A stretch of 64,000 nt of DNA from Escherichia phage vB_EcoM-101117BS1, in sequence record MZ234018.1, one strand, 5' to 3'. The translations under genes were made by a program, and so were the position numbers. Below, in pieces: positions 1 through 53,965 of the stretch. Position 1 is the first letter of the stretch. The number at the start of each line of letters is the position of its first letter. The notes beneath the pieces were generated by a model. The model made no database searches and was not told the origin of the DNA. It worked only from the letters and a program-made list of their open reading frames with translations.

Positions 1-969
1 ATGAAAACTGTAACTATCAATAAGGGTATCTACTTCGGTAAAGAAATCTCTGGAACTTTTGAGCTCTTAGGCGAATGGTTCCCAGATAATGCTCCGGTAG
101 ATGCACAAGGAGATGGTAAAGTTTTTGTTGAAATTGACGGTAAACGTCGCGGTGTTTGGGTTTACAAATCAGATATTTCATATGATGGTGTAAAAGTTGA
201 AGAAGTTAAAGAATCGTATGAAGATATGAAAACCCGCATTAATAAAAGATTTAATGTTATGGGAATGATGACGAATGGTATTATTAACGGAAACATTCGT
301 TCATTAATTATCTCGGGAGCAGCAGGTATTGGTAAAACGTATTCTTTAGATAAAGCTTTAAATAAAGCAAATGATATTGGATACATTGAGTATAAAAGCA
401 TTAATGGTAAAATCTCTGGTATCGGTCTTTATGAACAGCTTTGGAATAATCGTGAAGAGAATTCTGTCCTTTTGATTGATGATGTGGATGTTTTCTCTGA
501 TATGGACATTCTTAATCTTCTGAAAGCTGCTCTGGACACTGGAGAGACCCGTAAAGTCTGCTGGAGCACCGCATCTTCTTACTTAGAAGAAAAAGGCATT
601 GAGCGTGAGTTTGAATTTAAAGGAACGATTGTTTTTATCACAAACGTTGACATTGACCGCGAATTAGACCGTGGTACTAAACTTGCTCCACATTTACAAG
701 CATTAGTGTCCCGCTCAGTTTATTTGGATTTGGGTGTTCACACTAATGAAGAAATTATGGTCAGGGTTGAAGATGTTATTCTTTCAACTGACATGATGCA
801 AAAACGCGGTCTTTCTGATGAAGAAACTTATAAAGCATTATCATGGATGAAAGTCAATGTTAATCGTTTACGCAATGTTTCACTGCGTACTGCTCTTTAT
901 CTTGCTGACTTTATTATGACCGACAAAAACGGTTGGGAAGAAATCGCTGAGGTTACTCTTCTGAAATAA
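1..969 (+). CDS. AAA+ ATPase-like protein, function unknown (may be 5'-partial at window edge)
   Basis: 322-aa ORF; Walker A GAAGIGKT and Walker B-like LLIDDVD motifs. Confidence 0.55.
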   Translation: MKTVTINKGIYFGKEISGTFELLGEWFPDNAPVDAQGDGKVFVEIDGKRRGVWVYKSDISYDGVKVEEVKESYEDMKTRINKRFNVMGMMTNGIINGNIRSLIISGAAGIGKTYSLDKALNKANDIGYIEYKSINGKISGIGLYEQLWNNREENSVLLIDDVDVFSDMDILNLLKAALDTGETRKVCWSTASSYLEEKGIEREFEFKGTIVFITNVDIDRELDRGTKLAPHLQALVSRSVYLDLGVHTNEEIMVRVEDVILSTDMMQKRGLSDEETYKALSWMKVNVNRLRNVSLRTALYLADFIMTDKNGWEEIAEVTLLK

Positions 970-1071
970 TTCATAAGAGGACTTCTATGACAAAAAAGGC
1001 AGTTCAGAAATAGATTATATGGACTGCCATCAAAAAGATGACTAGAATTAAACTGGTGAATGGAGGTAGTG

Positions 1072-1374
1072 ATGTTATACTCAAAGGCTCGTGAAATTTA
1101 CGAAACTAAAATTAAAGAAGCTGTATTTCAATTCGCAACGACAATGCGATGGACAAATGACTGGGAGTATTCAAAAAATCATAAGAAGCCCATGGTGACA
1201 AGAAAGGCTCATATGTTAGTGTTAATAGACCGTGAACAGATTAAAGCCCGAGAAGCCCTCCAGAATCATAAAAAGGCTGCCTTTGAATGGTTTATGGATA
1301 ACACTGCTCCTGAGACTAAGAAAGCAGTGAGCGCTTGGTTCAGTGGAAAAAATTGTGAAAGAAGTTTCTTTTAG
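1072..1374 (+). CDS. hypothetical protein
   Basis: ORF with GGAGG Shine-Dalgarno 6 nt upstream of ATG 1072; alternative in-frame ATG at 1060. Confidence 0.45.
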   Translation: MLYSKAREIYETKIKEAVFQFATTMRWTNDWEYSKNHKKPMVTRKAHMLVLIDREQIKAREALQNHKKAAFEWFMDNTAPETKKAVSAWFSGKNCERSFF

Positions 1375-1376
1375 TG

Positions 1377-1406
1377 GTTTACAAGACTGTTCCTCTGTGG
1401 TACTAT
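1377..1406 (+). promoter_or_regulatory. T4-type early promoter (GTTTAC -35, 18-bp spacer, TGGTACTAT -10)
   Basis: GTTTAC 1377-1382, TACTAT 1401-1406, 34 nt upstream of ATG 1435. Confidence 0.55.
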
Positions 1407-1434
1407 ACAACTATCAACTACGGAGGAACAGAAA

Positions 1435-1962
1435 ATGAATGCTAAAGATATTTTCAACTTGGTAAACTACAATGATGGTAAATTTAAATCTGAAGCTCAA
1501 AGCAAGTTCTTTAATGATGTCTCAATCGGTGGTGAAATCACAGTTGATGGAGGACAAATTTATAAATCTCGTTGGAATTGGATTGTTATCATCGATGAAA
1601 TAGGTATCGTAGAAATTTATAAAAATACGAATAAAAATCGTACATTACACTGGTCTCGTGATACTAACGAACAGTACAAAAAGGATAAAGCATCTAAATT
1701 ATCTCGCGTAACTCAAGAAGATATTGAGTTCATCAAGAAAGATATTTTGATGTATGATAACTTAATTGCTGAAGAGCAAGCTGTTATTGATAAATTTGAC
1801 GAGATTAAAGCTTCTCGTGAAATTCCTGATTTTATGAAAGAATCAGTAAATGAACGATACACTCTCATTTCAGAGCGTATTGAAACTTACAAAAAGCAAA
1901 GAGCTGAACGCCAGAATACTCTTCGGAAGTTTGAAGAACGGTTAAAGACGGTACTCGCATAA
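1435..1962 (+). CDS. hypothetical protein with charged helical C-terminus
   Basis: 175-aa ORF, SD GGAGG upstream, downstream of early promoter. Confidence 0.5.
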   Translation: MNAKDIFNLVNYNDGKFKSEAQSKFFNDVSIGGEITVDGGQIYKSRWNWIVIIDEIGIVEIYKNTNKNRTLHWSRDTNEQYKKDKASKLSRVTQEDIEFIKKDILMYDNLIAEEQAVIDKFDEIKASREIPDFMKESVNERYTLISERIETYKKQRAERQNTLRKFEERLKTVLA

Positions 1963-2017
1963 CCGCTTTATACCAAGGATGGTATAATGGTTCTAAGCCC
2001 TTTTAATTGAGATTATT

Positions 2018-2425
2018 ATGAAACAGTTGATAATTAAAAGATTGAATTTATTGATATGTTGTTTATGTATAGTAATTGCATATGGTTATTACGCAATTAA
2101 TGATTATATGCATTATAAAGATTATGATGTTACTGTGGTTAATACCTTTACAGGAACTCAAGGGAAGGGGTCTAGTTTATCGTTTATTGCCGTATATGAA
2201 CTCAAAGACGGTTATAGATTTAGTGAATATATTTCCCCAGAGATGTATTCATCAATAGAAAAAGGCGATAATATTACTGTAAGTTTACGTCCTTTCGACG
2301 TAAAACAGACATTGTTTGATAATATTGTTTGGTTCTTTGGAATGGTATTAGTTCAATCTGTATGCGGTGCTTATATAGTCTTTTCCATCATATTCTGCGT
2401 ATTTAGTAAAATTGAAATTGAGTGA
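2018..2425 (+). CDS. predicted membrane protein
   Basis: 135-aa ORF with hydrophobic N- and C-terminal segments. Confidence 0.5.
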   Translation: MKQLIIKRLNLLICCLCIVIAYGYYAINDYMHYKDYDVTVVNTFTGTQGKGSSLSFIAVYELKDGYRFSEYISPEMYSSIEKGDNITVSLRPFDVKQTLFDNIVWFFGMVLVQSVCGAYIVFSIIFCVFSKIEIE

Positions 2426-2432
2426 GGAAAAT

Positions 2433-3320
2433 ATGTCAGTAGTAATTAATAATGTCAATGCAGTAATTAAATCTTTAGTTAATAAAAAATTGAATGAATG
2501 GACTGTACTTCGTCGTGGAGAGCCAGATAAATTTTTTCATAGATTTAACCCAACTTTGGATTTGAATGTTATTGACAGAGATGTTCATGCAGAAATTTTA
2601 GATAAGTTTAAAGTTGATATTGGATTTGGATTAGAAAAACATTTGCAGCGAACAAACGGGTCTGGAATGGGTTTATCTAATCGCATTATGAAAGCCCTTA
2701 ATAAAATTGGAGCATTGTCTCGTATTAACGCGAGTGAAATCCTTCATAATTATAATAAAGGATATGACCTTTATGGTCGACTAATGCCGAAATTATCATT
2801 TGACCAAATGATCGCAGATTTGTGGGAAAATCAACGACGATTATTAGCATTAGGCGCTCGATTAGCTAAAGGTCTAGATAAACAAATGATTTTTAAGACC
2901 AATAATACAGAAGACCTTAAATGCTTTAAATTTAGTATTCGCGGCGATGATTATTACGTCAGAGCTCGCTCTACAGATTATGTTAATATGGGGCATCATC
3001 TCTGTTTAGCTTTTGAAGTTTTAAAAGAAGCCGGAACATTAGAATATGTGTCTGGTGCTAAATGCCCGATTGGTTCAAGTTGTATTTTAATTTATCGCCC
3101 GGATGAATCCAGTTCATCTAAATTACCTACAAAACCTGTACCAGTTCGTAGTAACGAAAAACATTCTGAGCAAATTGATTATTTTAATAAGCAAATTGAA
3201 GAGCTGAATATTTCTATTCAACAGTATGACGATGAAATTTTCAGACTATCTGGATTGAGTAGTAAAGCTAAATCTGAGCGTGAAAAATTAATTAAAATTG
3301 TTGATTTACTTAAATCTTAA
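2433..3320 (+). CDS. hypothetical protein with C-terminal coiled-coil-like tail
   Basis: ATG at 2433 after GAGGAAAA SD (track start 2412 is TTG); C-terminal K/E-rich heptad-like segment. Confidence 0.55.
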   Translation: MSVVINNVNAVIKSLVNKKLNEWTVLRRGEPDKFFHRFNPTLDLNVIDRDVHAEILDKFKVDIGFGLEKHLQRTNGSGMGLSNRIMKALNKIGALSRINASEILHNYNKGYDLYGRLMPKLSFDQMIADLWENQRRLLALGARLAKGLDKQMIFKTNNTEDLKCFKFSIRGDDYYVRARSTDYVNMGHHLCLAFEVLKEAGTLEYVSGAKCPIGSSCILIYRPDESSSSKLPTKPVPVRSNEKHSEQIDYFNKQIEELNISIQQYDDEIFRLSGLSSKAKSEREKLIKIVDLLKS

Positions 3321-3328
3321 GGAACACT

Positions 3329-4333
3329 ATGAAAACTCGTTCTCAAATTGAAGATATGGTTCGTAATGCCAGCTATACCCGTAATGTTATGACATTTTTG
3401 TGCCAAAATAATTTAGACCCTGATAGAGTTAATAGTTCCATTCACTTTAAGTATATGAATAGCAGTGAATGGTTACGTCATTTTAGTAAAGCGGGATATA
3501 TTACACAAATGACTGCTCGTGAGCAGCTCACCGATTTCTGTAAAACTATTGATTATAAAAATCCTCTATTTGTTCAAGGCGTTGGTCAGAGTAAGGTCGA
3601 TTTATCAACAGGATTTTTTAATCCAAATCATTATCGTATTGAATGGAGATTTATTGCTCTATTTCGTAAACAATTAAAGCAAATTTTGTCTACTGCTAGT
3701 CGATTAAAAGGCTCTGATATTAACTTAAAGAATCTGAAATTTGATGGTTATACTCTTCAGATGGAAGTAAGACCATTAAAAGAAAATAATAGAACTGCAC
3801 GAATTAGCTTTAAACCTAATACAAAAAATTCTCTTTCAATTTGTGAATGTCTTAAATCACAGTTGACAGAAGCATTTAAGTATATGGATGTTGTTGCTGC
3901 TGTTCAATCTAAGATTTCGCAGCATTTCGAACGATTTAAATTAGATACGACAACATATGAACTTGATATGATCGTTTCATTTAAATATGATTTTTTGAGA
4001 AAGGACGAAGTTACACAAGAGAAAAAACCTGAACCCCAAACTAATTACTCATCAAACGATCCTAAATTTTGGATGTATAGTTCAGATAATAATGATGCAT
4101 GGAAATTTAATAAAGTGAATTTTCTTCCTGTTGAAAATCCGAGTCTTAAACCTGTTGAAAAATGGCACGCTGACGCGATTGAGAAGTCTATCAAGGCAGT
4201 AGATGATGAACTCGTTAAAGCAACTAATGAAGTGTTAGAAGCTGAAAAGATGCTAGAAAAAGCTCAAGAAAAAGTAAAAAATCTCACGAAGCAACGTTCT
4301 AAATTGAACAACGCACTAAATGCACTAAACTAG
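3329..4333 (+). CDS. hypothetical protein with C-terminal coiled-coil-like tail
   Basis: 334-aa ORF; C-terminus KATNEVLEAEKMLEKAQEKVKNLTKQ. Confidence 0.55.
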   Translation: MKTRSQIEDMVRNASYTRNVMTFLCQNNLDPDRVNSSIHFKYMNSSEWLRHFSKAGYITQMTAREQLTDFCKTIDYKNPLFVQGVGQSKVDLSTGFFNPNHYRIEWRFIALFRKQLKQILSTASRLKGSDINLKNLKFDGYTLQMEVRPLKENNRTARISFKPNTKNSLSICECLKSQLTEAFKYMDVVAAVQSKISQHFERFKLDTTTYELDMIVSFKYDFLRKDEVTQEKKPEPQTNYSSNDPKFWMYSSDNNDAWKFNKVNFLPVENPSLKPVEKWHADAIEKSIKAVDDELVKATNEVLEAEKMLEKAQEKVKNLTKQRSKLNNALNALN

Positions 4334-4362
4334 TTTACTTCGCCACAAGGATGTGGTATAAT
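4333..4362 (+). promoter_or_regulatory. T4-type early promoter
   Basis: GTTTAC 4333-4338, 18-bp spacer, TGGTATAAT with TATAAT 4357-4362. Confidence 0.6.
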
Positions 4363-4390
4363 GTTCTTACTTTCTACTGAGGAGATTAAT

Positions 4391-5392
4391 ATGACTCGCA
4401 ACGAATATATTAAATCGTTCAACAGCGTTATTGATGATAAAGCTATACCGATGTTTGGTCAAAATATCGTTCTTTCTATTATCAATCAATGGCTCAATAG
4501 TGTTGATGCAAGTATTGTTTCTTCTACTAAATTTATTCATGAAATTCGTAAAATTTCTAGCCGTGTAGATAAAGATGACATTAAGAAAACCTTTAAAGGG
4601 TCTCGTCTTCTTTCATACTTAGTCAACAGAGATATTCTTAGTAAATTTGGGAAAGAAATTAAACGAACTAAAGATGTAGTAGGATATAATTGGTTCGGTG
4701 ATGTTAATTCTTATCATCTTAATAATAAAGAAGACCCTGAGAATATTTTTACTCGTCGTTGGATTAGTAATTTCAGACTTTTCAAAGGACAAATTCTAAA
4801 ATCAGCTTCTAAATTATGTTATGGCGATTATCGTCAAATTCATCCTTTGGCTTCTGATATGATTATCGTAAAAGAATATGAGCTTGATGAAAATAAAGTA
4901 GCTATTTTTGTGAATTATGGATTTTTTACACCAAACGCTAACCAAAAGAATATTAATAAATTTTTCTCAATTGCTAGCACTATAACTCGTCAGTTAGAGA
5001 CTGCATTACTTTGTATGGAAACAGTAGAAAATATTCATACATATCCTTTTAAGAATATATGCGGATGGGAAGGATATAAAATTGTAATTAGTCTTCGTGA
5101 AGTGAAATGTGCTTATTCACCTACTGATAAAGAAATTTATCAACAAAAATGTGAGGAAATTGTGAATACTCCTAAAGAAGAAACTACCCTTGAGGAACTA
5201 ATGGATAATCTTGATGATTCGCCTGAACCGGCAGAAATTCGTCCAGAAGTTATTGCATTAGAAAAAGCTTATAAAGAAGTTCTAGAAATTTCTAATAAAG
5301 CACAGAAAGAATATGAGCAGGCTAAAAGGATTTGGGAAGAATCTGTCAATCGTCTTGATCGTCTTGAACAAGCTTTACAGTTAATTAAGTAA
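4391..5392 (+). CDS. hypothetical protein with C-terminal coiled-coil-like tail
   Basis: ATG 4391 after GAGGAG SD; C-terminus EKAYKEVLEISNKAQKEYEQAKRIWEESVNRLDRLEQALQ. Confidence 0.55.
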   Translation: MTRNEYIKSFNSVIDDKAIPMFGQNIVLSIINQWLNSVDASIVSSTKFIHEIRKISSRVDKDDIKKTFKGSRLLSYLVNRDILSKFGKEIKRTKDVVGYNWFGDVNSYHLNNKEDPENIFTRRWISNFRLFKGQILKSASKLCYGDYRQIHPLASDMIIVKEYELDENKVAIFVNYGFFTPNANQKNINKFFSIASTITRQLETALLCMETVENIHTYPFKNICGWEGYKIVISLREVKCAYSPTDKEIYQQKCEEIVNTPKEETTLEELMDNLDDSPEPAEIRPEVIALEKAYKEVLEISNKAQKEYEQAKRIWEESVNRLDRLEQALQLIK

Positions 5393-5444
5393 TTTAAAGC
5401 CAAGGATGGCTCGGAGTATAAATCATTAACCAAGTGAGAAGAAT

Positions 5445-6374
5445 ATGAAAACTCGTAAACATTATATTGATTATTTTGACAGTCTTATTACTAAACACCG
5501 TAATTATCAGATCGGGCACAGAGCAGTAATCAATAATATTCTTCGTGATTTCCTTCAATATGTTGGTCAGGAAAATCATATCTGTAAAGATACTCAAAAC
5601 GCTTATTCTCATTCGTTAGGCAATTTGCTTGAATGGTTTAAACGTTCTCGTATGTTATCTTCTACTGTAGCTCGTGATAACATTAAAAACTTTATGAAGC
5701 CGAGCTTCATTAAATCTGAGACATCTATAACCGATTTGGTTGAATTTACTATTGTTAATGATGTTAAAAAGACTCATTTGGCTGATTGGTTTTCTACCAT
5801 TCCTGAAACCAAATTTGCTGATAAATTTGCTTGTCAATTCAATGACCAAGTGAATATGCTTTTTAAGCATGCTCGCAAACTGTTTACCGCGGGCGATGCT
5901 CGCACAAATACAGTTCATGTTAAGGACTGGGTTATTGCTGATGAAGTAACACACAAGCCAGGTGGTTCATCAGTATTAATTAATATTCAAGTTCCTTATT
6001 ATTACTCACGTAATCTCGGCACCATGACAGCTAGAGAAATTAATAAGCACAACAAAACTATTCGTTCGTTGTCTTATAAACTCCGCATGATGTTAAAAAT
6101 TATGGATGTAGTGGAAATGTATGACGAAACCGAAGATAATGGTTCAATGTTATACAGTTTACGCATTCTAATTAAACTGAAGAACCCTAATACGTATAAG
6201 CCAGTTGTAAAAGAGCCTAAAGTAGAAAAGGTTGATAATCTGAGTGAAGAACGCGAATATCTCAGTGCCCGTTTGATTGAAGTTGAAAAACAGATTGAAG
6301 AGCATACTAAAGTTATTAAGGCTTTAACCACCAAAGCAAATGGTTTACGTGATGCTATTGAGGTACTGAAATGA
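5445..6374 (+). CDS. hypothetical protein with C-terminal coiled-coil-like tail
   Basis: 309-aa ORF; C-terminus [44 protein letters not shown]. Confidence 0.55.
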   Translation: MKTRKHYIDYFDSLITKHRNYQIGHRAVINNILRDFLQYVGQENHICKDTQNAYSHSLGNLLEWFKRSRMLSSTVARDNIKNFMKPSFIKSETSITDLVEFTIVNDVKKTHLADWFSTIPETKFADKFACQFNDQVNMLFKHARKLFTAGDARTNTVHVKDWVIADEVTHKPGGSSVLINIQVPYYYSRNLGTMTAREINKHNKTIRSLSYKLRMMLKIMDVVEMYDETEDNGSMLYSLRILIKLKNPNTYKPVVKEPKVEKVDNLSEEREYLSARLIEVEKQIEEHTKVIKALTTKANGLRDAIEVLK

Positions 6375-6667
6375 AAAAGCGTTTATTAGAAGATATTGCC
6401 GAAGCTTCAGATTTTCCTGAATGGACTCCATGCGCTGGGTTTGATAAAGGACTGCTAGTTACTGACGATTTAGATTTTAAACCTCCAGCATGGGATGCTA
6501 TTATGGCTATGGTTAAACGTCGCGAAAGGGCTTCTAAAAACGTTCCTAATTGCCCTGAATGTGGAACTGAACAGGTGCAATTGGTCCATTGGCAGACTAG
6601 TAATCTTCGTTATAAATGTCGCCATTGTAAACACCGATTTGACCGAGAAGAAAATGACAAAGCGTAA
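6371..6667 (+). CDS. small zinc-ribbon protein
   Basis: 98-aa ORF with CPEC...CRHC motif pair; start overlaps previous stop (ATGA). Confidence 0.5.
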
Positions 6668-6857
6668 AGAATATATGGAGACTGCTGAAAAGGCAGTCCG
6701 TGAATTAGCAATAGCTTATTATAATGAACATGGTAAATTTCCTGATAGATACAGCGTGCTTAAATCTGCTTTAACTCGTTCATATAAAAATATGCTATCA
6801 GAAGTAAGTGATATTATATACAAACATAAAGAACAAACGGGCCAAAGTCTTGATTGA
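6654..6857 (+). CDS. hypothetical small protein, C-terminally truncated by a 55-bp tandem duplication
   Basis: ATG 6654; TGA 6855-6857 is created at the duplication junction; without the second copy the frame would end at TAA 6949-6951. Confidence 0.45.
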
Positions 6858-6910
6858 AGTAAGTGATATTATATACAAACATAAAGAACAAACGGGCCAA
6901 AGTCTTGATT
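6801..6910 (+). repeat. perfect tandem direct duplication, 2 x 55 bp
   Basis: 6801-6855 is identical to 6856-6910 (gaagtaagtgatattatatacaaacataaagaacaaacgggccaaagtcttgatt). Confidence 0.9.
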
Positions 6911-6952
6911 ACGATGAGACTTTTAAACAAGTACTAGGAATTAAGGAATAAT

Positions 6953-7216
6953 ATGTTTAAAGTATATGGTTATGATAGCAACATTCATAAATGCGTGTAT
7001 TGCGATAATGCAAAACGTCTTTTGACCGTGAAGAAACAGCCGTTTGAATTTATCAACATTATGCCGGAAAAAGGTGTTTTTGATGATGAGAAAATCGCTG
7101 AGCTTCTGACTAAACTAGGTCGTGATACTCAAATCGGCTTGACAATGCCTCAGGTATTTGCTCCTGATGGAAGTCATATTGGTGGATTTGACCAACTGCG
7201 AGAATATTTTAAATGA
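6953..7216 (+). CDS. nrdC: thioredoxin/glutaredoxin-like NrdC
   Basis: 87-aa ORF with CVYC active-site motif; matches T4 NrdC in size and sequence. Confidence 0.85.
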   Translation: MFKVYGYDSNIHKCVYCDNAKRLLTVKKQPFEFINIMPEKGVFDDEKIAELLTKLGRDTQIGLTMPQVFAPDGSHIGGFDQLREYFK

Positions 7217-7611: not shown

Positions 7612-7932
7612 ATGACTATTGAAAATAAATTAGATGTTGATGCAGTTCTGAGCGAAATCATTGAAGACCATGATGCATTTTCGGAAAACTATGATTTCGA
7701 TTTTTCCGATTATCTTAAACCTGTCGAAATAGAAGACTGGGTGCAAGATGGTAAATGTCAATATCGTCAGTGTGTTTACTTTAGTCCAAAACATAATGTA
7801 CATGTGGCTGTAAATGAATCTCGGTCAGGTTCTTATCATTCTGATTGGTATTATGCAGTTCCGACTGTTGAACTAGTCGAGCCCCGTGAACGTGTAGTAA
7901 CTCAGACAGTACGAGAATGGATTACGCTATAA
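7612..7932 (+). CDS. hypothetical acidic protein
   Basis: 106-aa ORF. Confidence 0.45.
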   Translation: MTIENKLDVDAVLSEIIEDHDAFSENYDFDFSDYLKPVEIEDWVQDGKCQYRQCVYFSPKHNVHVAVNESRSGSYHSDWYYAVPTVELVEPRERVVTQTVREWITL

Positions 7933-8055
7933 AACCTTGGTGGGCGGCTAGATGGGAAACTGTAGAGCCAGAGCCGGAAGAACCGGTTTACACTGATGAA
8001 GAAACAGTATATAATGAACCAACGATAAATGACTTAATTGATATGGAGATGGGAT

Positions 8056-8541
8056 ATGATTACAGTAAATAAATGGTTTAGAATTAATCGTGCTGATACA
8101 GGGCTGTGTAATTACTGGCCGGAACTTAGCGCAGGTGCTGTCTTTAAAGTTCGTGAACTTGCAAAAGAATGTGAAGATGATATAGAGCCTGATACTGGAA
8201 TTATTGAAATTGAACTTTCCGACGGAAAGATTATTAATATCTATGATAAGCCAATTACGTATTGGTGCTTATGGAATACTGAATCCGTTGAAAATGGCGA
8301 AATTGAAGAAGTTGTAGAGCGAACTAATCAAGTTGTTCAGAAGCCTAAAGCCGATTTTCAAGGTGAACGTATTTCATACGCATTAGCTAAATTAGCTGCG
8401 CAAGAAAATAACGATGGTTATGAAGGTAACCTGATGCAAGCTGCCGCAGAATACATTGAATGGCTTGAAACTCAAATTTCTTTTTCTGACCAAAAGATTC
8501 GGCAATATAAGCGATTGAATCAAATGTTTTACAATACTTGA
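8056..8541 (+). CDS. Pin-like protein (candidate inhibitor of host Lon protease)
   Basis: 161 aa from ATG 8056 (track start 8038 is TTG); size and position between nrdC and 49 match T4 pin. Confidence 0.45.
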   Translation: MITVNKWFRINRADTGLCNYWPELSAGAVFKVRELAKECEDDIEPDTGIIEIELSDGKIINIYDKPITYWCLWNTESVENGEIEEVVERTNQVVQKPKADFQGERISYALAKLAAQENNDGYEGNLMQAAAEYIEWLETQISFSDQKIRQYKRLNQMFYNT

Positions 8542-26593: not shown

Positions 26594-26675
26594 CATACAA
26601 GTAATATAAATCTATACTTATGAAAAACAGATGATTCTGGACATTTAGAATTCCCTAAAAATTTTTCACAAAACT

Positions 26676-26705
26676 GTTTACAAGACTGTTCTTCCATGGT
26701 ACTAT
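26676..26705 (+). promoter_or_regulatory. T4-type early promoter
   Basis: GTTTAC 26676-26681, 18-bp spacer, TGGTACTAT; shares a conserved leader with the promoters at 53899 and 57885. Confidence 0.55.
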
Positions 26706-26739
26706 ACAACTATCAACTAATACGGATTTGGAGAATAAA

Positions 26740-26976
26740 ATGAAAATTGTTTATGGTTGCTTAGCAGTGTGTTTAGTTGCATTAGCAACTGTTCCATTTA
26801 TTGATATTGAAAATGATACTCAGAATGTGATTGAATCTAATACTGTTATTCACATGAATGGTAAAGTATCAACAAAAATTGATGATAATCTTCATATGAA
26901 TACTAATGGAACGCTAGGTGTTCAATTAGGTAATACCTGTGTAAGCACTACTGGAGTAATTACTACTTGCATTTGA
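26740..26976 (+). CDS. small secreted protein (signal peptide)
   Basis: 78 aa from ATG 26740; N-terminal hydrophobic signal-like segment. Confidence 0.45.
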   Translation: MKIVYGCLAVCLVALATVPFIDIENDTQNVIESNTVIHMNGKVSTKIDDNLHMNTNGTLGVQLGNTCVSTTGVITTCI

Positions 26977-33247: not shown

Positions 33248-33880
33248 ATGATTTATTATATGCACAAAAATCCACCGTTTAAATACGGTAAATTTCCTGA
33301 TGCACAATGTTATAATATAACGCCTGATGAAAATAACCGTGGATATCTTATTGGCACAATTTTTGTAATTGTTAAAGATAACGAAATCGTTGCCTGGGCA
33401 GATTTTAAAGGTACAACATATGATGTTAATCCGGTGCCTTTCACATATTACAATTTAATGGATTTGGCATACGATTATAATTGGTTTAATCATGACACTT
33501 TGGCTCATATTGAAGGTGTAGGATTTGATATTTCATATTCGGAATACACTTTAAGCCCTATGAGTCGAGCCCATAAAGAACCTGAATATTTTTCATTTAG
33601 GAAACGTGTAAACTTTAAACGCAGCACAGAGTATGTCGGTGGAATCTTTGTTAAAGATAATCGAATTATTCGTATTAATTATCCTTTGAGCGTTAGTCAA
33701 AAAGATATTGATGTTGATTTAGATTTCACTGAAAATAATATTAATAATATTGCTTCTGTGTATTTTGGTATCGATCACAAAATTGTAATATGTGGATATG
33801 AATTACCGTTTGAAGAACAGCCTAAAGTAAAAGTTTCTATTGACGATCAAATTTTTAATGCTTTTATGAATAAAGGTTAA
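33248..33880 (+). CDS. hypothetical protein at the T4 61.2 position (possible AdfA-like)
   Basis: 210-aa ORF; C-terminal tail IDDQIFNAFMNKG is shared with the next ORF. Confidence 0.45.
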   Translation: MIYYMHKNPPFKYGKFPDAQCYNITPDENNRGYLIGTIFVIVKDNEIVAWADFKGTTYDVNPVPFTYYNLMDLAYDYNWFNHDTLAHIEGVGFDISYSEYTLSPMSRAHKEPEYFSFRKRVNFKRSTEYVGGIFVKDNRIIRINYPLSVSQKDIDVDLDFTENNINNIASVYFGIDHKIVICGYELPFEEQPKVKVSIDDQIFNAFMNKG

Positions 33881-33884
33881 TATG
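33836..33884 (+). repeat. 49-bp direct repeat, copy A (3' end of ORF plus junction to next start)
   Basis: tctattgacgatcaaatttttaatgcttttatgaataaaggttaatatg; 3 mismatches to copy B. Confidence 0.8.
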
Positions 33885-34238
33885 TATAGTTCTGAATTTT
33901 CATATTTAAAAATGGAAAAAATTTCATACGATTTTATAGATGAAAAGGTTTATTACAGTTTCCATGAACCGCGTTTTAATAGTGAGGTTGGGTTTATTGT
34001 AGTAAAAGACAATTTCATTTTAAAGATATATTCGGCATTAAAGGATTTTCACTACGAAAATATTAACCTAAAATTTGATAAAGAAAACGTTCGTAATTGT
34101 GCAGTAACAATTACAGGAAATAAAGGTACATGTGTTATGCTATCTGATGAAATTAATGATTTGCTAAATGATGCAGAAAATATTACTGCGCCATCTATTG
34201 ATGACCAAATTTTTAATGCTTTTATGAATAGAGGTTAA
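33882..34238 (+). CDS. hypothetical protein
   Basis: 118-aa ORF ending IDDQIFNAFMNRG. Confidence 0.45.
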   Translation: MYSSEFSYLKMEKISYDFIDEKVYYSFHEPRFNSEVGFIVVKDNFILKIYSALKDFHYENINLKFDKENVRNCAVTITGNKGTCVMLSDEINDLLNDAENITAPSIDDQIFNAFMNRG

Positions 34239-34242
34239 TATG
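34194..34242 (+). repeat. 49-bp direct repeat, copy B
   Basis: tctattgatgaccaaatttttaatgcttttatgaatagaggttaatatg. Confidence 0.8.
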
Positions 34243-39101: not shown

Positions 39102-39725
39102 ATGATTATTAATCTTGCAGATGTTGAACAGTTATCTATAAAAGCTGAAAGCGTTGATTTTCAATATGATATGTATAAAAAGGTCTGTGAAAAATTTACT
39201 GACTTTGAACAATCCGTTCTTTGGCAATGTATGGAAGCCAAAAAGAATGAAGCTCTTCATAGGCAGTTGAATAAAATCATTAAAAAGCATTTAACTAAAT
39301 CACCTTATCAGTTATATCGTGGTATATCAAAATCAACAGAAGAACTTATTAAAGATTTACAAGTTGGAGAAGTGTTTTCAACGAATAGAGTAGATTCATT
39401 TACTACTAGTTTGCTCACAGCATGTTCTTTTTCTTACGCTGAATATTTTACTAAAATAATACTTCGCTTAAAAACTAATAAAGCTTTTAATTATTCTGAC
39501 CATATCAGCGATATTATACTTTCTTCTCCTAATACTGAGTTTAAGTACACGTATGAAGATACTGATGGATTAGATTCAGAGCGTACTGATAACTTAATGA
39601 TGATTGTGCGTGAACAGGAATGGATGATTCCAATTGGAAAGTATAGAATAACTTCTATTTCAAAAGAAAAATTACACGATTCATTTGGAACATTTAAAGT
39701 TTATGATATTGAGGTAGTTGAATGA
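39102..39725 (+). CDS. modB: ADP-ribosyltransferase ModB
   Basis: 207 aa; R...STS...E-x-E type motifs (YRGISKST, FSTNR, EQEWMIP). Confidence 0.65.
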   Translation: MIINLADVEQLSIKAESVDFQYDMYKKVCEKFTDFEQSVLWQCMEAKKNEALHRQLNKIIKKHLTKSPYQLYRGISKSTEELIKDLQVGEVFSTNRVDSFTTSLLTACSFSYAEYFTKIILRLKTNKAFNYSDHISDIILSSPNTEFKYTYEDTDGLDSERTDNLMMIVREQEWMIPIGKYRITSISKEKLHDSFGTFKVYDIEVVE

Positions 39726-40324
39726 AATACTCAGTAATGCAACTAAAAGATTTTAAAATAAAATCAATGGATGCATCGGTGCGTGCTTCTATTCGTGAAG
39801 AATTACTTTCTGAAGGGTTTAATTTATCTGAAATTGAACTTTTAATTCATTGTATTACTAATAAACCAGATGACCATACTTGGTTAAATGAAATAATCAA
39901 ATCTCGTTTGGAACCAAACGATAAACCTCTTTGGAGAGGTGTTCCAGCTGAGACTAAACAAGTATTAAATCAAGGAATTGATATTATTACATTTGATAAA
40001 GTAGTATCAGCTTCATATGATAAAAATATAGCTCTACATTTTGCTTCTGGTTTAGAATATAACACACAAGTTATTTTTGAATTCAAAGCTCCTATGGTAT
40101 TCAATTTCCAGGAGTATGCTATAAAAGCTCTACGCTGTAAAGAATACAATCCAAACTTTAAGTTTCCGGATAGTCATCGTTATCGTAATATGGAATTAGT
40201 TTCAGATGAACAAGAAGTAATGATACCAGCTGGAAGTGTATTTAGAATTGCAGATAGATATGAGTACAAAAAGTATTCAACATACACTATCTATACTCTT
40301 GATTTTGAAGGATTTAATCTATAA
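39722..40324 (+). CDS. modA: ADP-ribosyltransferase ModA
   Basis: 200 aa; paralogue of the preceding ORF (WRGVP, SASYD, EQEVMIP). Confidence 0.65.
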   Translation: MKYSVMQLKDFKIKSMDASVRASIREELLSEGFNLSEIELLIHCITNKPDDHTWLNEIIKSRLEPNDKPLWRGVPAETKQVLNQGIDIITFDKVVSASYDKNIALHFASGLEYNTQVIFEFKAPMVFNFQEYAIKALRCKEYNPNFKFPDSHRYRNMELVSDEQEVMIPAGSVFRIADRYEYKKYSTYTIYTLDFEGFNL

Positions 40325-40381
40325 TGGAAGGACTTAGATTCATTATACCATGAAAGTTTTAAAGCATTTTTACATAAAGTT

Positions 40382-40411
40382 GTTTACAAGTTAAGGTAAA
40401 AATGTTATAGT
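40382..40411 (+). promoter_or_regulatory. T4-type early promoter
   Basis: GTTTAC 40382-40387, 18-bp spacer, TATAGT. Confidence 0.5.
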
Positions 40412-40450
40412 ATAAGTAGTAGTTAACCGTCCGTAAGATGTGAGAAAAAT

Positions 40451-41197
40451 ATGAAGCTGTCTAATAATCAAATTCGTAAAATTAAACGTCGTCTAGAGCA
40501 TACTCAGGCATCTGCAAAAAGACGTTCTAAAGATTTTAACTTAGACTTCAATTACATTAAGAACATTTTAGATCAAAAAGTTTGTGCTTACTCGGGAGAA
40601 CCTTTTGATAATCGTATTGAAGGAGAGAAATTATCATTAGAACGTTTTGATAATAACATTGGATACATTAAAGGGAATGTTATTGCAGTAAAGAAAAAGT
40701 ATAATACATTTCGTTCTGATTATACTTTAGAAGAGTTGATTGAAAAACGGGATTTATTTGCTTTGCGAATTGGTCGTTCATCTGCGAAAAAAGTTCATAA
40801 ACTAAATTTAGATGAAAAGAAATGGGCTAAAATCAAAAAGACTTATAATCAAATTAAAGCTATACAGAAAAAACGTGAAAACCGAATTGAACACATTTCT
40901 CAGCTTTCTAAATCAAAACAGACCTCTGACATTAAGCTAAGGATTATAGCACTTAAAGCACGTATTGATGGTTCTCGCATAGCAGAAGGCGCTGAAGTTG
41001 TTAAATTGAACGTTCTTCTTAAAGGCTCGGATTGGAAAATTGTGAAAAAGCTGTCAGAAGCAGAAATGCAATATGATATGTGTGATAAAATTATTCAAGG
41101 TGTAGAGCGGTATCAAAATTTGTCTTTTATTGATAAACTTAAACTGAAAAGAGGATACCCGCTAAATTGTTCAATTTTTAAACTTATCCGAGGATAA
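40451..41197 (+). CDS. Srd-like protein (at the position of T4 srd)
   Basis: 248-aa basic ORF between modA and dda. Confidence 0.4.
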   Translation: MKLSNNQIRKIKRRLEHTQASAKRRSKDFNLDFNYIKNILDQKVCAYSGEPFDNRIEGEKLSLERFDNNIGYIKGNVIAVKKKYNTFRSDYTLEELIEKRDLFALRIGRSSAKKVHKLNLDEKKWAKIKKTYNQIKAIQKKRENRIEHISQLSKSKQTSDIKLRIIALKARIDGSRIAEGAEVVKLNVLLKGSDWKIVKKLSEAEMQYDMCDKIIQGVERYQNLSFIDKLKLKRGYPLNCSIFKLIRG

Positions 41198-41198
41198 T

Positions 41199-41510
41199 AT
41201 GGTTTATGTATATGCGATAGTTTACCGAGACAAAGACGGATTTACGGCGCCAGTTCCACTTGATGAACATCGTCCTGCTGTGTTTTTTGAAAGAGAGATT
41301 GCTGATAGAGTTTTTACTACTCTCAAAGACCAATATAAACTAGCTTTAGGTATGGGAATTCCAAGACTAGTTGAGACTCCACGCAAGTTTTGGTTTAATA
41401 AAATAGAAGTTAAACATGTTAAGCCTGATGTAGATACACAAAGATTATATCAACGAATTCTAGATACTGGGCGTATTGTTAGTATTCCAATTGCAGGGAC
41501 TTTCCGATGA
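41199..41510 (+). CDS. hypothetical protein
   Basis: 103-aa ORF. Confidence 0.45.
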   Translation: MVYVYAIVYRDKDGFTAPVPLDEHRPAVFFEREIADRVFTTLKDQYKLALGMGIPRLVETPRKFWFNKIEVKHVKPDVDTQRLYQRILDTGRIVSIPIAGTFR

Positions 41511-42826
41511 CATTTGATGATTTGACAGAAGGCCAGAAAAATGCCTTTAACATCGTTATGAGGGCTATTAAAGAAAAGAAACATCATGTAACTATTAATG
41601 GACCTGCTGGTACTGGTAAGACTACTCTTACTAAGTTCATCATTGAAGCCTTAATATCTACAGGCGAAACTGGCATTATTTTAGCAGCTCCTACTCATGC
41701 AGCTAAAAAGATTCTTTCAAAACTGTCGGGGAAAGAAGCGAGTACTATTCACAGTATTCTTAAAATTAACCCAGTTACGTATGAAGAAAACGTTCTTTTT
41801 GAACAGAAGGAAGTACCAGATTTAGCTAAATGCAGGGTATTAATCTGCGACGAAGTGTCAATGTATGATAGAAAGCTATTTAAAATTCTGCTTTCAACTA
41901 TTCCACCATGGTGTACTATAATTGGAATAGGCGATAATAAGCAAATTAGACCTGTTGACCCAGGAGAAAACACTGCTTATATCAGTCCGTTCTTTACACA
42001 CAAAGATTTTTATCAGTGTGAACTCACTGAAGTTAAACGCAGTAATGCTCCTATTATTGATGTAGCTACTGACGTTCGTAACGGTAAGTGGATTTATGAT
42101 AAAGTTGTTGACGGGCATGGAGTACGTGGATTTACTGGTGATACCGCTTTACGCGATTTTATGGTAAATTATTTTTCAATCGTCAAATCTTTAGATGATT
42201 TGTTTGAAAATCGCGTAATGGCATTTACGAATAAATCTGTTGACAAGTTAAATAGCATTATTCGTAAAAAGATTTTTGAAACTGATAAAGATTTTATTGT
42301 CGGTGAAATTATTGTAATGCAGGAACCATTAATTAAAACATATAAAATTGATGGAAAGCCTGTGTCAGAAATTATTTTTAATAACGGACAATTAGTTCGT
42401 ATTATAGAAGCAGAGTATACATCAACGTTTGTTAAAGCTCGTGGTGTTCCTGGAGAATATCTAATTCGTCATTGGGATTTAACAGTAGAAACTTATGGCG
42501 ATGATGAATATTATCGTGAAAAGATTAAAATAATTTCATCTGACGAAGAATTGTATAAGTTTAACCTATTTTTAGGTAAAACTGCAGAAACTTATAAAAA
42601 TTGGAACAAAGGCGGAAAAGCTCCGTGGAGTGATTTTTGGGATGCTAAATCACAGTTTAGTAAAGTGAAAGCACTTCCTGCATCAACATTCCATAAAGCT
42701 CAGGGTATGTCTGTAGACCGTGCTTTCATTTATACGCCTTGTATTCATTATGCAGATGCTGAATTGGCTCAACAACTTCTTTATGTTGGTGTTACCCGTG
42801 GTCGTTATGACGTATTTTATGTGTGA
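41507..42826 (+). CDS. dda: DNA helicase Dda (SF1B)
   Basis: 439 aa; Walker A GPAGTGKTT; matches T4 Dda. Confidence 0.9.
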   Translation: MTFDDLTEGQKNAFNIVMRAIKEKKHHVTINGPAGTGKTTLTKFIIEALISTGETGIILAAPTHAAKKILSKLSGKEASTIHSILKINPVTYEENVLFEQKEVPDLAKCRVLICDEVSMYDRKLFKILLSTIPPWCTIIGIGDNKQIRPVDPGENTAYISPFFTHKDFYQCELTEVKRSNAPIIDVATDVRNGKWIYDKVVDGHGVRGFTGDTALRDFMVNYFSIVKSLDDLFENRVMAFTNKSVDKLNSIIRKKIFETDKDFIVGEIIVMQEPLIKTYKIDGKPVSEIIFNNGQLVRIIEAEYTSTFVKARGVPGEYLIRHWDLTVETYGDDEYYREKIKIISSDEELYKFNLFLGKTAETYKNWNKGGKAPWSDFWDAKSQFSKVKALPASTFHKAQGMSVDRAFIYTPCIHYADAELAQQLLYVGVTRGRYDVFYV

Positions 42827-42832
42827 GGATAT

Positions 42833-43093
42833 ATGATTAACATCAATTCAAAATATTTAAATCGTCTAATAGATGGTATAAGGAAGCATACTAATAAGCA
42901 AGATAATCTTAATGTTATGGTAACAGGAGCTGAGCTCCTTCATAAGCTTTATCTTATAAGTGATACTATATTAGCAATTAAACGAATTGAAAAACAATCA
43001 TATCACAGTAATACAGATACGGTAATTACACTAGATGAAAGTGTCTGTAAATTACTAATTAAATTTGAGGAAGCTATTCGTGGAAATAACTAA
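42833..43093 (+). CDS. hypothetical protein
   Basis: 86-aa ORF. Confidence 0.4.
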   Translation: MININSKYLNRLIDGIRKHTNKQDNLNVMVTGAELLHKLYLISDTILAIKRIEKQSYHSNTDTVITLDESVCKLLIKFEEAIRGNN

Positions 43094-43325
43094 AGATCAG
43101 TTTTATCTTCTTCAGGATAAAGTTAGCGAAATTTATGAAATTGCTCATGGTAAAAATCGTGAAACTGTAAAAATTGAATCTAGTAAGTTGATGCTTCAAT
43201 TAGAAGAAATTGAACGAGATTTAATTGCGTTAGAATTCTTTTGTGGTGAAGTGAAAACTGTTACAATCAATGATTACGTTTTAGGCGAAATTAGCTATCT
43301 TTATGAGGCGATTATTAATGATTGA
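43080..43325 (+). CDS. hypothetical protein (paralogue of the next ORF)
   Basis: GTG 43080 with GAGGA SD; shares a C-terminal motif with ORF 43318. Confidence 0.4.
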   Translation: MEITKDQFYLLQDKVSEIYEIAHGKNRETVKIESSKLMLQLEEIERDLIALEFFCGEVKTVTINDYVLGEISYLYEAIIND

Positions 43326-43560
43326 ATTAAGTTGGTACCAGTTTAAATCTCTTATGACAAATGTTAAAGCTGTCATTGAGAAAAATTCTGGTCCTGAAAA
43401 TATTACTATTCGCGAAAAAGCTTTAAAGATAATATACAGTCTTGAAGAGATGCAAAAAGATATTGAATCTATGGCAAAATTTATTGATGAGCCCATTAAT
43501 AAAGTTTATATCCAAGATTATACTGTAGGTCAAATTCGCGATTTAGCGAGGAAAGTTTAA
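43318..43560 (+). CDS. hypothetical protein (paralogue of the previous ORF)
   Basis: ATG 43318 overlapping previous stop; 80 aa. Confidence 0.4.
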   Translation: MIELSWYQFKSLMTNVKAVIEKNSGPENITIREKALKIIYSLEEMQKDIESMAKFIDEPINKVYIQDYTVGQIRDLARKV

Positions 43561-44243
43561 TGTTTGATTTTATTATAGATTTTGAAACAATGGGAAGTGG
43601 TGAAAAAGCAGCTGTTATTGATTTGGCTGTAATTGCTTTTGACCCTAACCCGGAAGTTGTTGAAACATTCGATGAATTAGTTTCACGTGGCATTAAAATC
43701 AAATTTGATTTAAAAAGCCAAAAAGGACATCGTCTTTTTACTAAAAGCACTATCGAATGGTGGAAGAATCAATCTCCCGAAGCTCGAAAAAATATTGCGC
43801 CATCAGATGAAGATGTAAGCACTATCGATGGTATTGCAAAATTTAATGATTACATCAATGCACATAATATCGATCCTTGGAAATCTCAAGGCTGGTGCCG
43901 TGGAATGTCGTTTGATTTTCCAATTTTAGTCGATCTCATTCGCGATATTCAACGTCTTAACGGCGTTTCAGAGAATGAGCTTGATACATTTAAGTTAGAA
44001 CCTTGTAAATTTTGGAATCAGCGTGATATTCGTACCAGAATTGAAGCACTTCTCCTTGTTCGTGATATGACCACGTGTCCTCTTCCAAAAGGAACCTTAG
44101 ATGGATTCGTTGCGCATGATTCTATTCATGACTGTGCGAAAGACATCCTGATGATGAAGTATGCTTTGCGCTATGCTATGGGTCTTGAAGATGCTCCGTC
44201 AGAGGAAGAGTGCGATCCTCTATCTCTTCCAACAAAACGATAA
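43560..44243 (+). CDS. dexA: exonuclease A DexA (DEDDh 3'-5' exonuclease)
   Basis: 227 aa; DFETMG and H...D motifs. Confidence 0.85.
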   Translation: MFDFIIDFETMGSGEKAAVIDLAVIAFDPNPEVVETFDELVSRGIKIKFDLKSQKGHRLFTKSTIEWWKNQSPEARKNIAPSDEDVSTIDGIAKFNDYINAHNIDPWKSQGWCRGMSFDFPILVDLIRDIQRLNGVSENELDTFKLEPCKFWNQRDIRTRIEALLLVRDMTTCPLPKGTLDGFVAHDSIHDCAKDILMMKYALRYAMGLEDAPSEEECDPLSLPTKR

Positions 44244-44249
44244 AAAGTT

Positions 44250-44279
44250 GTTTACTTCCTCGGTTAGTTGTGGTATTAT
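44250..44279 (+). promoter_or_regulatory. T4-type early promoter
   Basis: GTTTAC 44250-44255, 18-bp spacer, TGGTATTAT. Confidence 0.55.
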
Positions 44280-44306
44280 AACATCATAGCTACTGAGGAT
44301 AATAAA

Positions 44307-44819
44307 ATGAAAATTTATCGTGTTGAATCATCGTTTAGTGCATTAAATGATGATAGTGGTATAATGAAAATTAGGCAAGAGTTATGCGTTCAATCAACTC
44401 CTTATCGTGGATTTGATTCTATGAAAACTCGAACTTGGTTAAAATTTTGTGGTATTAATTCATCATCATTTCATCATCATAGCGATAATTATGAAAGCCA
44501 TGAAAGTATTCCTATTCCACACGATGATAAGTTATTAGTTGAAAATGCTAATGATGTTATTAAAACTAAATGGAATAAAGATTATTCACGAATTGAAAAT
44601 TATATTCCATTATGGTTTATTGCATTATATCATTTTGCTTTCGCTAGTGAATATGATATGATGAGATGGTTCACTCGAGAAGAGCGTGAAGACTTAAAAG
44701 AACGTGGAATGTACATTGCGATTTATGAAGTGCCAGATGATCAAGTTATCATTGGTGGGCATCAAGTAATGTTTCGCAAATCGCATGCTGAATTAAAAGG
44801 CTTTATTACCTTAGACTAA
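44307..44819 (+). CDS. hypothetical protein
   Basis: 170 aa from ATG 44307 after GAGGA SD. Confidence 0.45.
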   Translation: MKIYRVESSFSALNDDSGIMKIRQELCVQSTPYRGFDSMKTRTWLKFCGINSSSFHHHSDNYESHESIPIPHDDKLLVENANDVIKTKWNKDYSRIENYIPLWFIALYHFAFASEYDMMRWFTREEREDLKERGMYIAIYEVPDDQVIIGGHQVMFRKSHAELKGFITLD

Positions 44820-44829
44820 AGAGAAAATT

Positions 44830-45330
44830 ATGATTAAAATTAATACTACGTATCAAATGAAAAAACCGTCTGAAATTGATTTCCAGACAATGTCGAATAC
44901 GACTGATAGCAAGTTTTGGGAACTTCTTGGTACAACTGGCGGATATCCTTTTACTGTTATTAGTGTTAATAGCGGAATTCTCATTGGTACAGTGTACATG
45001 GAAATTAGAAACTATTATGGAAGGGTATCATCATTCATCATCTATGAAGAAGATTTCAATTTATTGACAGAAATTGAAAAAGAAGAACAAGAAAAATCCC
45101 ATATTGATATGGATTTAGTTTCTATGTATGTAACACCAGTTGAAAAAATTGAAGACCCGACTGATTTGTTGTGTAAGGCAGTTTATATTCGTCGTCCATT
45201 CGCGAATCCGATTGGCGGTTGGGTAACTGATCAGTGGATTGAAGATGGTGTTGAACTTCTGAACGTAGTTCATGCTGGAGAGTACTCTGTAGTTCCTCGC
45301 AGCGCAGTGATTAATGTTCGTGTAAGCTAG
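44830..45330 (+). CDS. hypothetical protein (paralogue of ORF 45404)
   Basis: 166 aa; shared C-terminal motif TDQWIEDGVELLNVV. Confidence 0.5.
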   Translation: MIKINTTYQMKKPSEIDFQTMSNTTDSKFWELLGTTGGYPFTVISVNSGILIGTVYMEIRNYYGRVSSFIIYEEDFNLLTEIEKEEQEKSHIDMDLVSMYVTPVEKIEDPTDLLCKAVYIRRPFANPIGGWVTDQWIEDGVELLNVVHAGEYSVVPRSAVINVRVS

Positions 45331-45359
45331 TTTACAAACTCTTGGGACCAGAGTATAAT
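45330..45359 (+). promoter_or_regulatory. T4-type early promoter
   Basis: GTTTAC 45330-45335, 18-bp spacer, TATAAT 45354-45359. Confidence 0.6.
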
Positions 45360-45403
45360 GGTCCTGCGGAGTATAAAATCTTTTTAACAAGTGAGAGATA
45401 ATT

Positions 45404-45895
45404 ATGAATATTAATATCGGTGAAATTGCTCGTGTATCTGATAAATCCCGTTCTAAAGCAGCAGGAAAATTGGTTGAAGTCGTAAGCATTCAGCTTAAAC
45501 ATGGTGTTAAAGATGAAGATTCTGAAGTAAAAGTGCGTATCATTCCTAAAGATGGAATGTCTAAACCTCAGTTTGGTTATGTTCGATGGAAATTTCTTGA
45601 GCCTGCGTTTTTGAAAGCTGTTCCCGCTAAAGGAATTGAAACGATTGATACTTCGCATGTAGGTGTAGACTTTAAGTGGAAACTCGGTCAAGCTATCAAG
45701 TTCGTTGCTCCTTATGAGTTTGAATTTACTGAAGGTGAGGAAGGTGTTGTTAACCGTACTCGCGCTATGTGTGCATACATTACTGATCAATGGGTAGAAG
45801 ATGGCGTTAAATTATACAACGCGGTATTTTTAGGAACATACAAAGTCATTCCTGAAAGTTGGATTAAACACTACAGCAAAGCTCGCTATGCATAA
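45404..45895 (+). CDS. hypothetical protein (at the position of T4 motB)
   Basis: 163 aa; paralogue of the preceding ORF. Confidence 0.5.
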   Translation: MNINIGEIARVSDKSRSKAAGKLVEVVSIQLKHGVKDEDSEVKVRIIPKDGMSKPQFGYVRWKFLEPAFLKAVPAKGIETIDTSHVGVDFKWKLGQAIKFVAPYEFEFTEGEEGVVNRTRAMCAYITDQWVEDGVKLYNAVFLGTYKVIPESWIKHYSKARYA

Positions 45896-45991
45896 AGTTT
45901 AAAATTTTTCATAAAACTATATACATCAGTAGTTGATTATGGTACTATATCAATATCAACTACTGATACAGAAAATAACTTGGAGAATAAA

Positions 45992-46261
45992 ATGGAAAAC
46001 TTAATTATCATCGAGCAATCTTTCAATGATTATGGTATGGCTTATGGTTATCGTGCGATAATGGAAGATTCTCGTGGATGTGTTATCGATATTGCTGAAT
46101 GTAAAGATTTACTGCAGCTTTTGAAGATTGTTCGTAAAAATTGGGATTGTGAAAACATTAAAGCTCGTGTTGTAACGGAAGAAGAAACTGTTTTTCATGA
46201 TGTAAAATTCGCTAAAGGTGCTGCTACTCTTCTGAAACGTATCGCTCCACTGTTTAATTAA
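45992..46261 (+). CDS. hypothetical protein
   Basis: 89 aa from ATG 45992; upstream leader resembles those at 26740 and 53966. Confidence 0.45.
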   Translation: MENLIIIEQSFNDYGMAYGYRAIMEDSRGCVIDIAECKDLLQLLKIVRKNWDCENIKARVVTEEETVFHDVKFAKGAATLLKRIAPLFN

Positions 46262-46274
46262 TGAGGAAATTGTA

Positions 46275-46490
46275 ATGAAACGTAAAATTGTTCAGAATTG
46301 CACTAATGACGAATTTGAAGATGTATTATTTGATCCAGATTTGGTAGTGGTTCAAAAGGAACATACCGTTAAGTTTACTCACTTGACTTCGGTTTATGTG
46401 TATGAAAAGGTTGGTGATAAACAACCGATTTATGGTGTATTCCGTGAAATCACTGAAGACGGTACAACTTACTGGAAGGAAATTTATTAA
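46275..46490 (+). CDS. hypothetical protein
   Basis: 71-aa ORF. Confidence 0.4.
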
Positions 46491-53881: not shown

Positions 53882-53898
53882 AAAAATTTCACAAAACA

Positions 53899-53928: not shown

Positions 53929-53965
53929 ACAACTATCAACTACTGATACGGATTTGGAGAATAAA

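Follow-up and report, generated by a model that had tools for sequence, protein, structure and literature searches.

Does the exact 55-bp tandem repeat immediately upstream of nrdC in the genome record of Escherichia phage vB_EcoM-101117BS1 (MZ234018.1) belong to the phage, where it would truncate a small gene, or did it enter the record when the genome was put together? The stretch of DNA analysed here, referred to as the window, comprises 64,000 nucleotides and represents, by comparison with its relatives, the opening 64 kb in the genome of a T4-like phage (Tequatrovirus). Judged from sequence comparisons, the duplication is most probably no real feature of the phage.

The repeat and the gene that it interrupts

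Positions 6801-6855 and 6856-6910 are identical (55/55) and abut directly, as the first-pass annotation had claimed and as was confirmed by sequence read-out, a scan of the window, Tandem Repeats Finder (6801-6910, period 55, 2.0 copies, 100% matches, score 220) and a pattern search with the 55-bp unit, which gave 2 exact matches against 0 expected (100 shuffles). In the scan, 6801-6910 is the only exact tandem duplication with a period of at least 12 in the 64-kb window. The unit has the sequence GAAGTAAGTG…CTTGATT; it is preceded by a unique left flank ending …ATGCTATCA, the order being left flank, one full copy and then GAAGTAAG, and the junction of copy 1 with copy 2 is given by the 31-mer GGCCAAAGTCTTGATTGAAGTAAGTGATATT, which is impossible in a single-copy genome. 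The edges of the repeat (tatca/GAAGT and TGATT/acgat) have 0 nt in common to either side, which means no microhomology in the form of a short direct repeat at the two endpoints. A promoter and terminator scan inside the unit found nothing exceeding shuffle expectation, and a regulatory element within the unit was rejected on this ground. The features relevant to the analysis are as follows.

1-3, plus strand: start of the window and of the record; ATG of the first CDS, the same as in PM107 and PM133
3599-6914: block 100% identical to PM107/PM108 (3,262 bp with one copy removed), ending 4 nt past the unit
6371-6667, plus strand: nrdC.2, a 98-aa zinc-ribbon variant with a 14-nt overlap with the nrdC.1 start, as in T4
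6654-6857, plus strand: nrdC.1 as written, 67 aa and stop; 80 aa in T4 (T4p085) and relatives
6801-6855: copy 1 of the 55-bp unit; in the case of an artefact, the original circular contig would have ended with these 55 bases as its final k-mer
6855-6857, plus strand: TGA stop in the nrdC.1 frame, arising across the junction of the two copies
6856-6910: copy 2 of the unit, identical to copy 1; in the case of an artefact, the original contig would have begun with these 55 bases
6911-6951, plus strand: displaced nrdC.1 3' end, 13 aa and TAA (6949-6951), out of frame with the 5' part
6953-7216, plus strand: nrdC, a glutaredoxin-fold thioredoxin of 87 aa, intact and with a Pfam Glutaredoxin match

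By its sequence, the ORF at 6654 is nrdC.1 of a T4-like phage. The family assignment derives from the precomputed matches of NrdC.1 homologues to Pfam PF26914 (Phage_T4_Y04M) and from the identity to T4p085, and several relatives' records name the ORF nrdC.1; when NrdC.1 was compared with a local copy of Pfam, no family matched, presumably because the PF26914 model is absent from that copy. In T4 (NC_000866), nrdC.1 (T4p085, 243 nt; NP_049699.1, UniProt-style Y04M, PF26914) overlaps nrdC.2 by 14 nt and is separated from nrdC by 1 nt, and the gene in the window resembles it in its place between nrdC.2 and nrdC, in this overlap and in this gap. Unlike the T4 gene, however, the window as written encodes residues 1-67 only, the ORF being cut from 80 to 67 aa by the junction TGA. 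That this TGA is in frame with the ATG at 6654 had been stated beforehand and is borne out by the ORF list, in which an entry at 6495-6857 has the same frame, and by the 67-aa translation. The loss of 14 codons previously described corresponds to 13 aa plus the stop, ending with the TAA at 6949-6951, and the spacing of 1 nt noted there between this TAA and nrdC agrees with the position of the nrdC ATG at 6953. nrdC has an AAGGA Shine-Dalgarno motif of its own just upstream of that ATG.

When one copy of the unit is removed, the predicted protein is identical to T4 NrdC.1 (NP_049699.1) at 80/80 residues, compared with 67/67 as written, and the conserved spacing of stop, 1 nt and nrdC ATG is restored. 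The one-copy protein is also 100% identical in 9 of 11 sampled relatives, the 13 C-terminal residues included.

The window contains further repeats of other kinds. Dispersed direct repeats occur at 1359-1449, 26658-26748, 53881-53971, 54397-54487 and 57867-57957, as well as at 4331-4362, 49620-49651 and other places; they have the form GTTTAC…N…TGGTACTATAC / TATAAT, with a Shine-Dalgarno sequence and an ATG coming after it, and resemble T4 early promoters with leaders, which are expected in this group. These early-promoter-like families are unrelated to the 55-bp repeat. A 49-nt direct repeat (33836-33884 and 34194-34242; 94% identical, 358 nt apart, both copies ending TAATATG) probably represents the 3' ends of a pair of small paralogues lying side by side. 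Imperfect tandem repeats with periods of 27 and 30 and 76-77% matches are found at 62042-62097 and 62377-62449, within a 671-aa minus-strand ORF (61940-63955) that is, by position, probably a tail-fibre gene.

Copy number in related phages and the start of the record

The nearest records are vB_EcoM-PM107/PM108, PM133 and PM105 (MZ2340xx), with ~98% identity overall. Across the repeat region all close relatives are shorter by exactly 55 bases (946 versus 1001), in 497 records a 70-nt query across the junction falls back onto one 55-bp stretch, and one-copy records among related phages number ~500. Moreover, a junction-only query (27+27 nt, with arms too short for seeding on a single copy) had no match among 50,697 phage records, the junction 31-mer was not found in IMG/VR, and the junction was not found in the locus or contig of any fetched relative, each of which has one copy or none. 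On this comparative evidence the one-copy form is taken as ancestral and the two-copy form as unique to the vB_EcoM-101117BS1 record. Alignment to T-even relatives had been suggested as a way to see whether a single copy is ancestral, and the ~500 one-copy records answer this in the affirmative; no conserved two-copy arrangement, which had been named as a refuting finding, turned up among the 50,697 phage records and IMG/VR. An exact-protein look-up with the truncated NrdC.1 had no match, and none of the contigs reached through exact matches to NrdC, DNA polymerase and the rare NrdC.2 variant is identical to the window.

Two sequences deviate within the same small gene in other ways. In OQ067376.1 (3756-3860) nrdC.1 opens with ~55 nt whose register differs from that in all other phages, and is called as 46 aa only, with nrdC.2 lengthened to 124 aa; this is either a separate, independent disruption of the gene or a sequencing error. 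In the metagenome contig ERZ19210739 NODE_14 (1784-2035), NrdC.1 is called as 83 aa, overlapping the nrdC start, and the 55-bp unit is inexact, the product being a C-terminal variant of an otherwise invariant protein.

Also significant is the position at which the record begins. The ATG shared with PM107 and PM133 is not a natural start for a T4-like genome that is circularly permuted, and the common start points to deliberate re-opening at the siblings' coordinate; this indirect evidence suggests that a circular genome was re-opened at a chosen position following the siblings' convention. A phage annotation guide (PMC8785237) describes such re-ordering to a conventional start and cautions that contigs should be examined for stretches present twice. 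Taken together, the complete genomes of PM107 and PM133 (338.7 kb) contain no exact tandem duplication with a period of at least 12 and no terminal overlap, and the number of other exact tandem duplications in ~400 kb of the lineage (window, PM107 and PM133) is thus 0. An artefact recurring systematically in the same laboratory's records is, as a consequence, unsupported, and a literature search found no paper on the PM-series assemblies.

Origin of the second copy

Direct observation covers the repeat itself with its length and uniqueness, the rotated start, and the gene left intact once one copy is removed; the explanation that best accommodates these findings, to which we assign a high probability, is that the second copy is an untrimmed assembly overlap absent from the phage. 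When set against assembler k values of 21, 33, 55, 77, 99 and 127, the length of the repeat equals 55, a default or standard k of SPAdes in published k lists. As for a k-mer overlap, the copies are exact and adjacent, their length is that of an assembler k, and the junction is missing from the searched records of relatives and from IMG/VR. An artefact is favoured by this length in combination with the lack of microhomology, the rotated record and the documented ~55-bp end repeats of SPAdes; by the restoration of the 80-aa protein on removal of one copy, so conserved a gene being unlikely to be broken in a wild isolate; and by the fact that the sole exact tandem duplication in the window, PM107 and PM133 has the assembler's k as its length. 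The absence of microhomology is expected for a cut-and-paste join and is unusual for slippage or illegitimate recombination. The first-pass annotation had listed slippage or recombination, a stock-specific mutation and an assembly artefact as origins; the last of these has gained from the length of 55 and the rotated record, whereas recent slippage fits poorly, since it depends on short direct repeats bordering the duplicated unit, which are absent here.

In the proposed course of events, SPAdes would have assembled the circle into a contig with the same 55-base k-mer as its first and last bases, and the submitter would have re-opened the circle at the ATG of the PM siblings by cut-and-paste, leaving one terminal k-mer untrimmed. 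The old contig end (…6855) would then have met the old contig start (6856…), with a perfect 55-bp tandem repeat inside the record as the result; concatenation of two neighbouring contigs with a common 55-bp graph overlap is considered a less likely variant. The assembler, the k value and the missed trimming step are what we infer here. The true sequence would accordingly have one copy and an intact 80-aa nrdC.1, and the artefact would account for the shortened ORF, its TGA and the stranded 3' end.

This proposal has precedents in the literature. Published phage announcements state that SPAdes "typically" leaves ~55-bp terminal repeats on circles, which resemble the present case in being exact direct repeats with the length of the final k of 55, and which likewise concern a circularly permuted T4-like (~170 kb) genome and are harmless once one copy is trimmed. 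Unlike these end repeats, the copies considered here are internal and adjacent rather than at the ends of the record, which fits rotation without trimming. For phages of Bacteroides thetaiotaomicron, SPAdes contigs were joined "based on 55 bp overlaps" (PMC12697093); the likeness lies in the 55-bp length and in the cause, a k-mer vertex common to adjacent graph edges, and such overlaps, if naively concatenated, would yield exactly this kind of tandem repeat. In contrast to the present record, with one such repeat in 64 kb, the overlaps in that study were merged correctly and confirmed by reads.

Three points nevertheless speak against an assembly overlap. PM107 and PM133 follow the same start convention without having an overlap and, if their pipeline was shared with the present record, it usually trims or did not use SPAdes. 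A real nrdC.1 knock-out would be viable, since the gene lies in a removable block of T4 (PMC9825161). Lastly, the repeat stands at the end of the longest block of PM107 identity, which is unexpected for a randomly placed contig end, although this last argument is a soft one.

A rival view is that the duplication is real and specific to this strain or stock, an illegitimate recombination or a template switch having added 55 bp within nrdC.1. The resulting frameshift would give the 67-aa NrdC.1, and ribosomes would end 96 nt, not 1 nt, upstream of nrdC. The repeat is, after all, present in the deposited sequence, its undiverged copies suit a recent event, and the same-laboratory siblings are free of untrimmed overlaps; furthermore, nrdC.1 falls within the dispensable block of T4 (PMC9825161), and T-even phages do form tandem duplications and amplifications, that of gp49.1-nrdC.1 in T6 among them (PMC13096335). 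Yet the T6 amplification junction is microhomologous (PMC13096335) and the edges of the present repeat are not, and a length exactly equal to an assembler k is, biologically, one among hundreds of possible lengths. A junction found in no other record, the breakage of a protein 100% conserved between T4 and vB_EcoM-101117BS1, and the lack of any further exact tandem duplication in ~400 kb of the lineage add to these objections, and a real duplication is accordingly regarded as unlikely.

About equally doubtful is a particular form of the artefact, in which two contigs sharing a 55-bp vertex k-mer were pasted in reference order without trimming. The break in the graph might have come, for example, from a PM107-like phage in the same lysate or run, and the record might then be chimeric to the left of the junction. 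Neighbouring SPAdes contigs do overlap by k, phage contigs have been joined through 55-bp overlaps (PMC12697093), and the start of the record follows the sibling records. To this can be added the distribution of identity to PM107. With one copy removed, the block to the left of the junction is a 3,262-bp run that is 100% identical in PM107/PM108 only (next best record, 96.9%) and is the longest stretch of PM107 identity in the first 30 kb (next longest, 828 bp), compared with 98.7% identity to the right of the junction, and the end of this block at the repeat may indicate that two sequences were joined there, whether in silico or in vivo. It is a soft signal, which places the breakpoint within ~200 bp only, because the T at 6915, the first PM107 mismatch, also occurs naturally as a minority allele (in 14 of 493 records, T2 included), because positions 6712-6914 are almost invariant among all relatives, and because divergence from PM107 climbs gradually to the right of the block, as in ordinary mosaicism. 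Natural mosaic boundaries are in any case expected in the conserved stretch around the breakpoint. A pasted join is further disfavoured by the absence of a second 55-bp duplication at the left edge of the block, which is abrupt (3599) and without duplication, or elsewhere in the 64 kb; by the register of the repeat, a branch from the first PM107 mismatch (6915) predicting a unit at 6805-6859 rather than 6801-6855; and by the tendency of T4-like lysates mostly to give one contig.

The left edge of the block can also be described in its own right. At 3599 the divergence from PM107, which is ~7% over the preceding 300 nt (23 differences, with a 3-nt indel at 3441), falls abruptly to 0% for the next 3.26 kb, which makes this edge a sharp mosaic boundary within the hypervariable nrdC.2-nrdC.11 region.

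A further explanation is suggested by the behaviour of this locus in T6, where phages escaping the OLD defence amplify gp49.1-nrdC.1 in a manner dependent on SegB and UvsX/Y, where Gp49.2 is the anti-OLD factor (an inhibitor of the OLD defence) and where NrdC.1 is without effect on OLD defence (PMC13096335). The 55-bp repeat could in principle be the footprint or edge of a SegB-type amplification, either as the scar of a collapsed array or as the edge, at 6801/6855, of an amplification carried by a minority of phages, this edge having given rise to the graph vertex at which the contig stops. The locus is the same as that amplified in the T6 escapers (PMC13096335), the gene order of the window matches that of T6, with a 106-aa ORF of gp49.2 size at 7612-7932, and, in a de Bruijn graph, branching occurs at the k-mer with which an amplified unit begins. 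The T6 amplification (PMC13096335) is like the present repeat in that both put tandem copies into this locus of a T-even phage, but it is unlike it in its dimensions, in that the T6 units are kilobase-scale, form multi-copy ladders and are selected for gp49.2, whereas here there is one extra 55 bp and no gene is gained, the unit lying inside nrdC.1 in 2 copies without the anti-defence gene and the gp49.2-sized ORF (7612-7932) being single copy. The T6 junction that is given in sequence (tRNA-Tyr/segB locus) has microhomology and the 55-bp repeat has none, there is no second vertex duplication, and the collapse of an array through homologous recombination leaves no scar. All of this makes a SegB-type origin extremely improbable, the least probable of the explanations considered. 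A SegB cleavage hotspot as the cause seems improbable as well, to judge from data on T6 rather than on vB_EcoM-101117BS1: the T6 SITE-seq table has no SegB peak at 39,230-46,396, and nrdC.1 lies at ~44.85-45.08 kb in T6.

Slightly less improbable, but still a long shot, is that the repeat is an assembler-made overlap marking the branch vertex of a lysate sub-population amplified from 6801/6855, or else a genuine natural knock-out of NrdC.1. By analogy with T6, the locus would in the former case be the gp49.1-nrdC.1 anti-OLD hotspot that is amplified under OLD pressure.

Consequences for the record and neighbouring annotations

Should the second copy be an untrimmed assembly overlap, the length of the genome on record is overstated by 55 bp, nrdC.1 is mistakenly given as a split gene or a pseudogene, and the annotation may include a 47-aa ORF (6808-6951) that does not exist, errors of a kind that propagate to pangenome, gene-presence and 'novel small ORF' analyses. 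The main value of the observation would then lie in data hygiene and in correction of the record; in general, rotated records of phages or plasmids can be flagged for such errors wherever their interior contains a tandem repeat that is exact and measures 55, 77, 99 or 127 bp. Should the duplication be real, a natural truncation would have removed 13 invariant C-terminal residues from a protein for which T4 and vB_EcoM-101117BS1 show 100% conservation, next to a locus whose amplification for anti-OLD defence has recently been demonstrated; this would be a modestly useful natural allele without a new mechanism. The change in translational coupling into nrdC that had been envisaged would likewise arise only in that case.

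Several annotations in this part of the genome merit comment independently of the repeat. The 106-aa plus-strand ORF at 7612-7932 has the position and the length of T4 gp49.2 and is followed by ORFs of gp49.1 and pin size at 7917-8072 and 8038-8541. The gp49.2-like gene is labelled 'ribonucleotide reductase' or 'nucleotide reductase subunit C' by RefSeq and RAST, apparently through a carried-over misannotation. In PM133 (MZ234052.1; 7658-7974) there is no annotated CDS at the place of the 106-aa gp49.2-like gene of PM107 and the window; the anti-OLD gene may truly have been lost there, or else a frameshift or an error in sequencing may be responsible. In PM107 (MZ234042.1; CDS within 1-6899), and likewise in several other records, ten consecutive nrdC.x genes are called 'thioredoxin', a label that has apparently spread from nrdC to unrelated neighbours.
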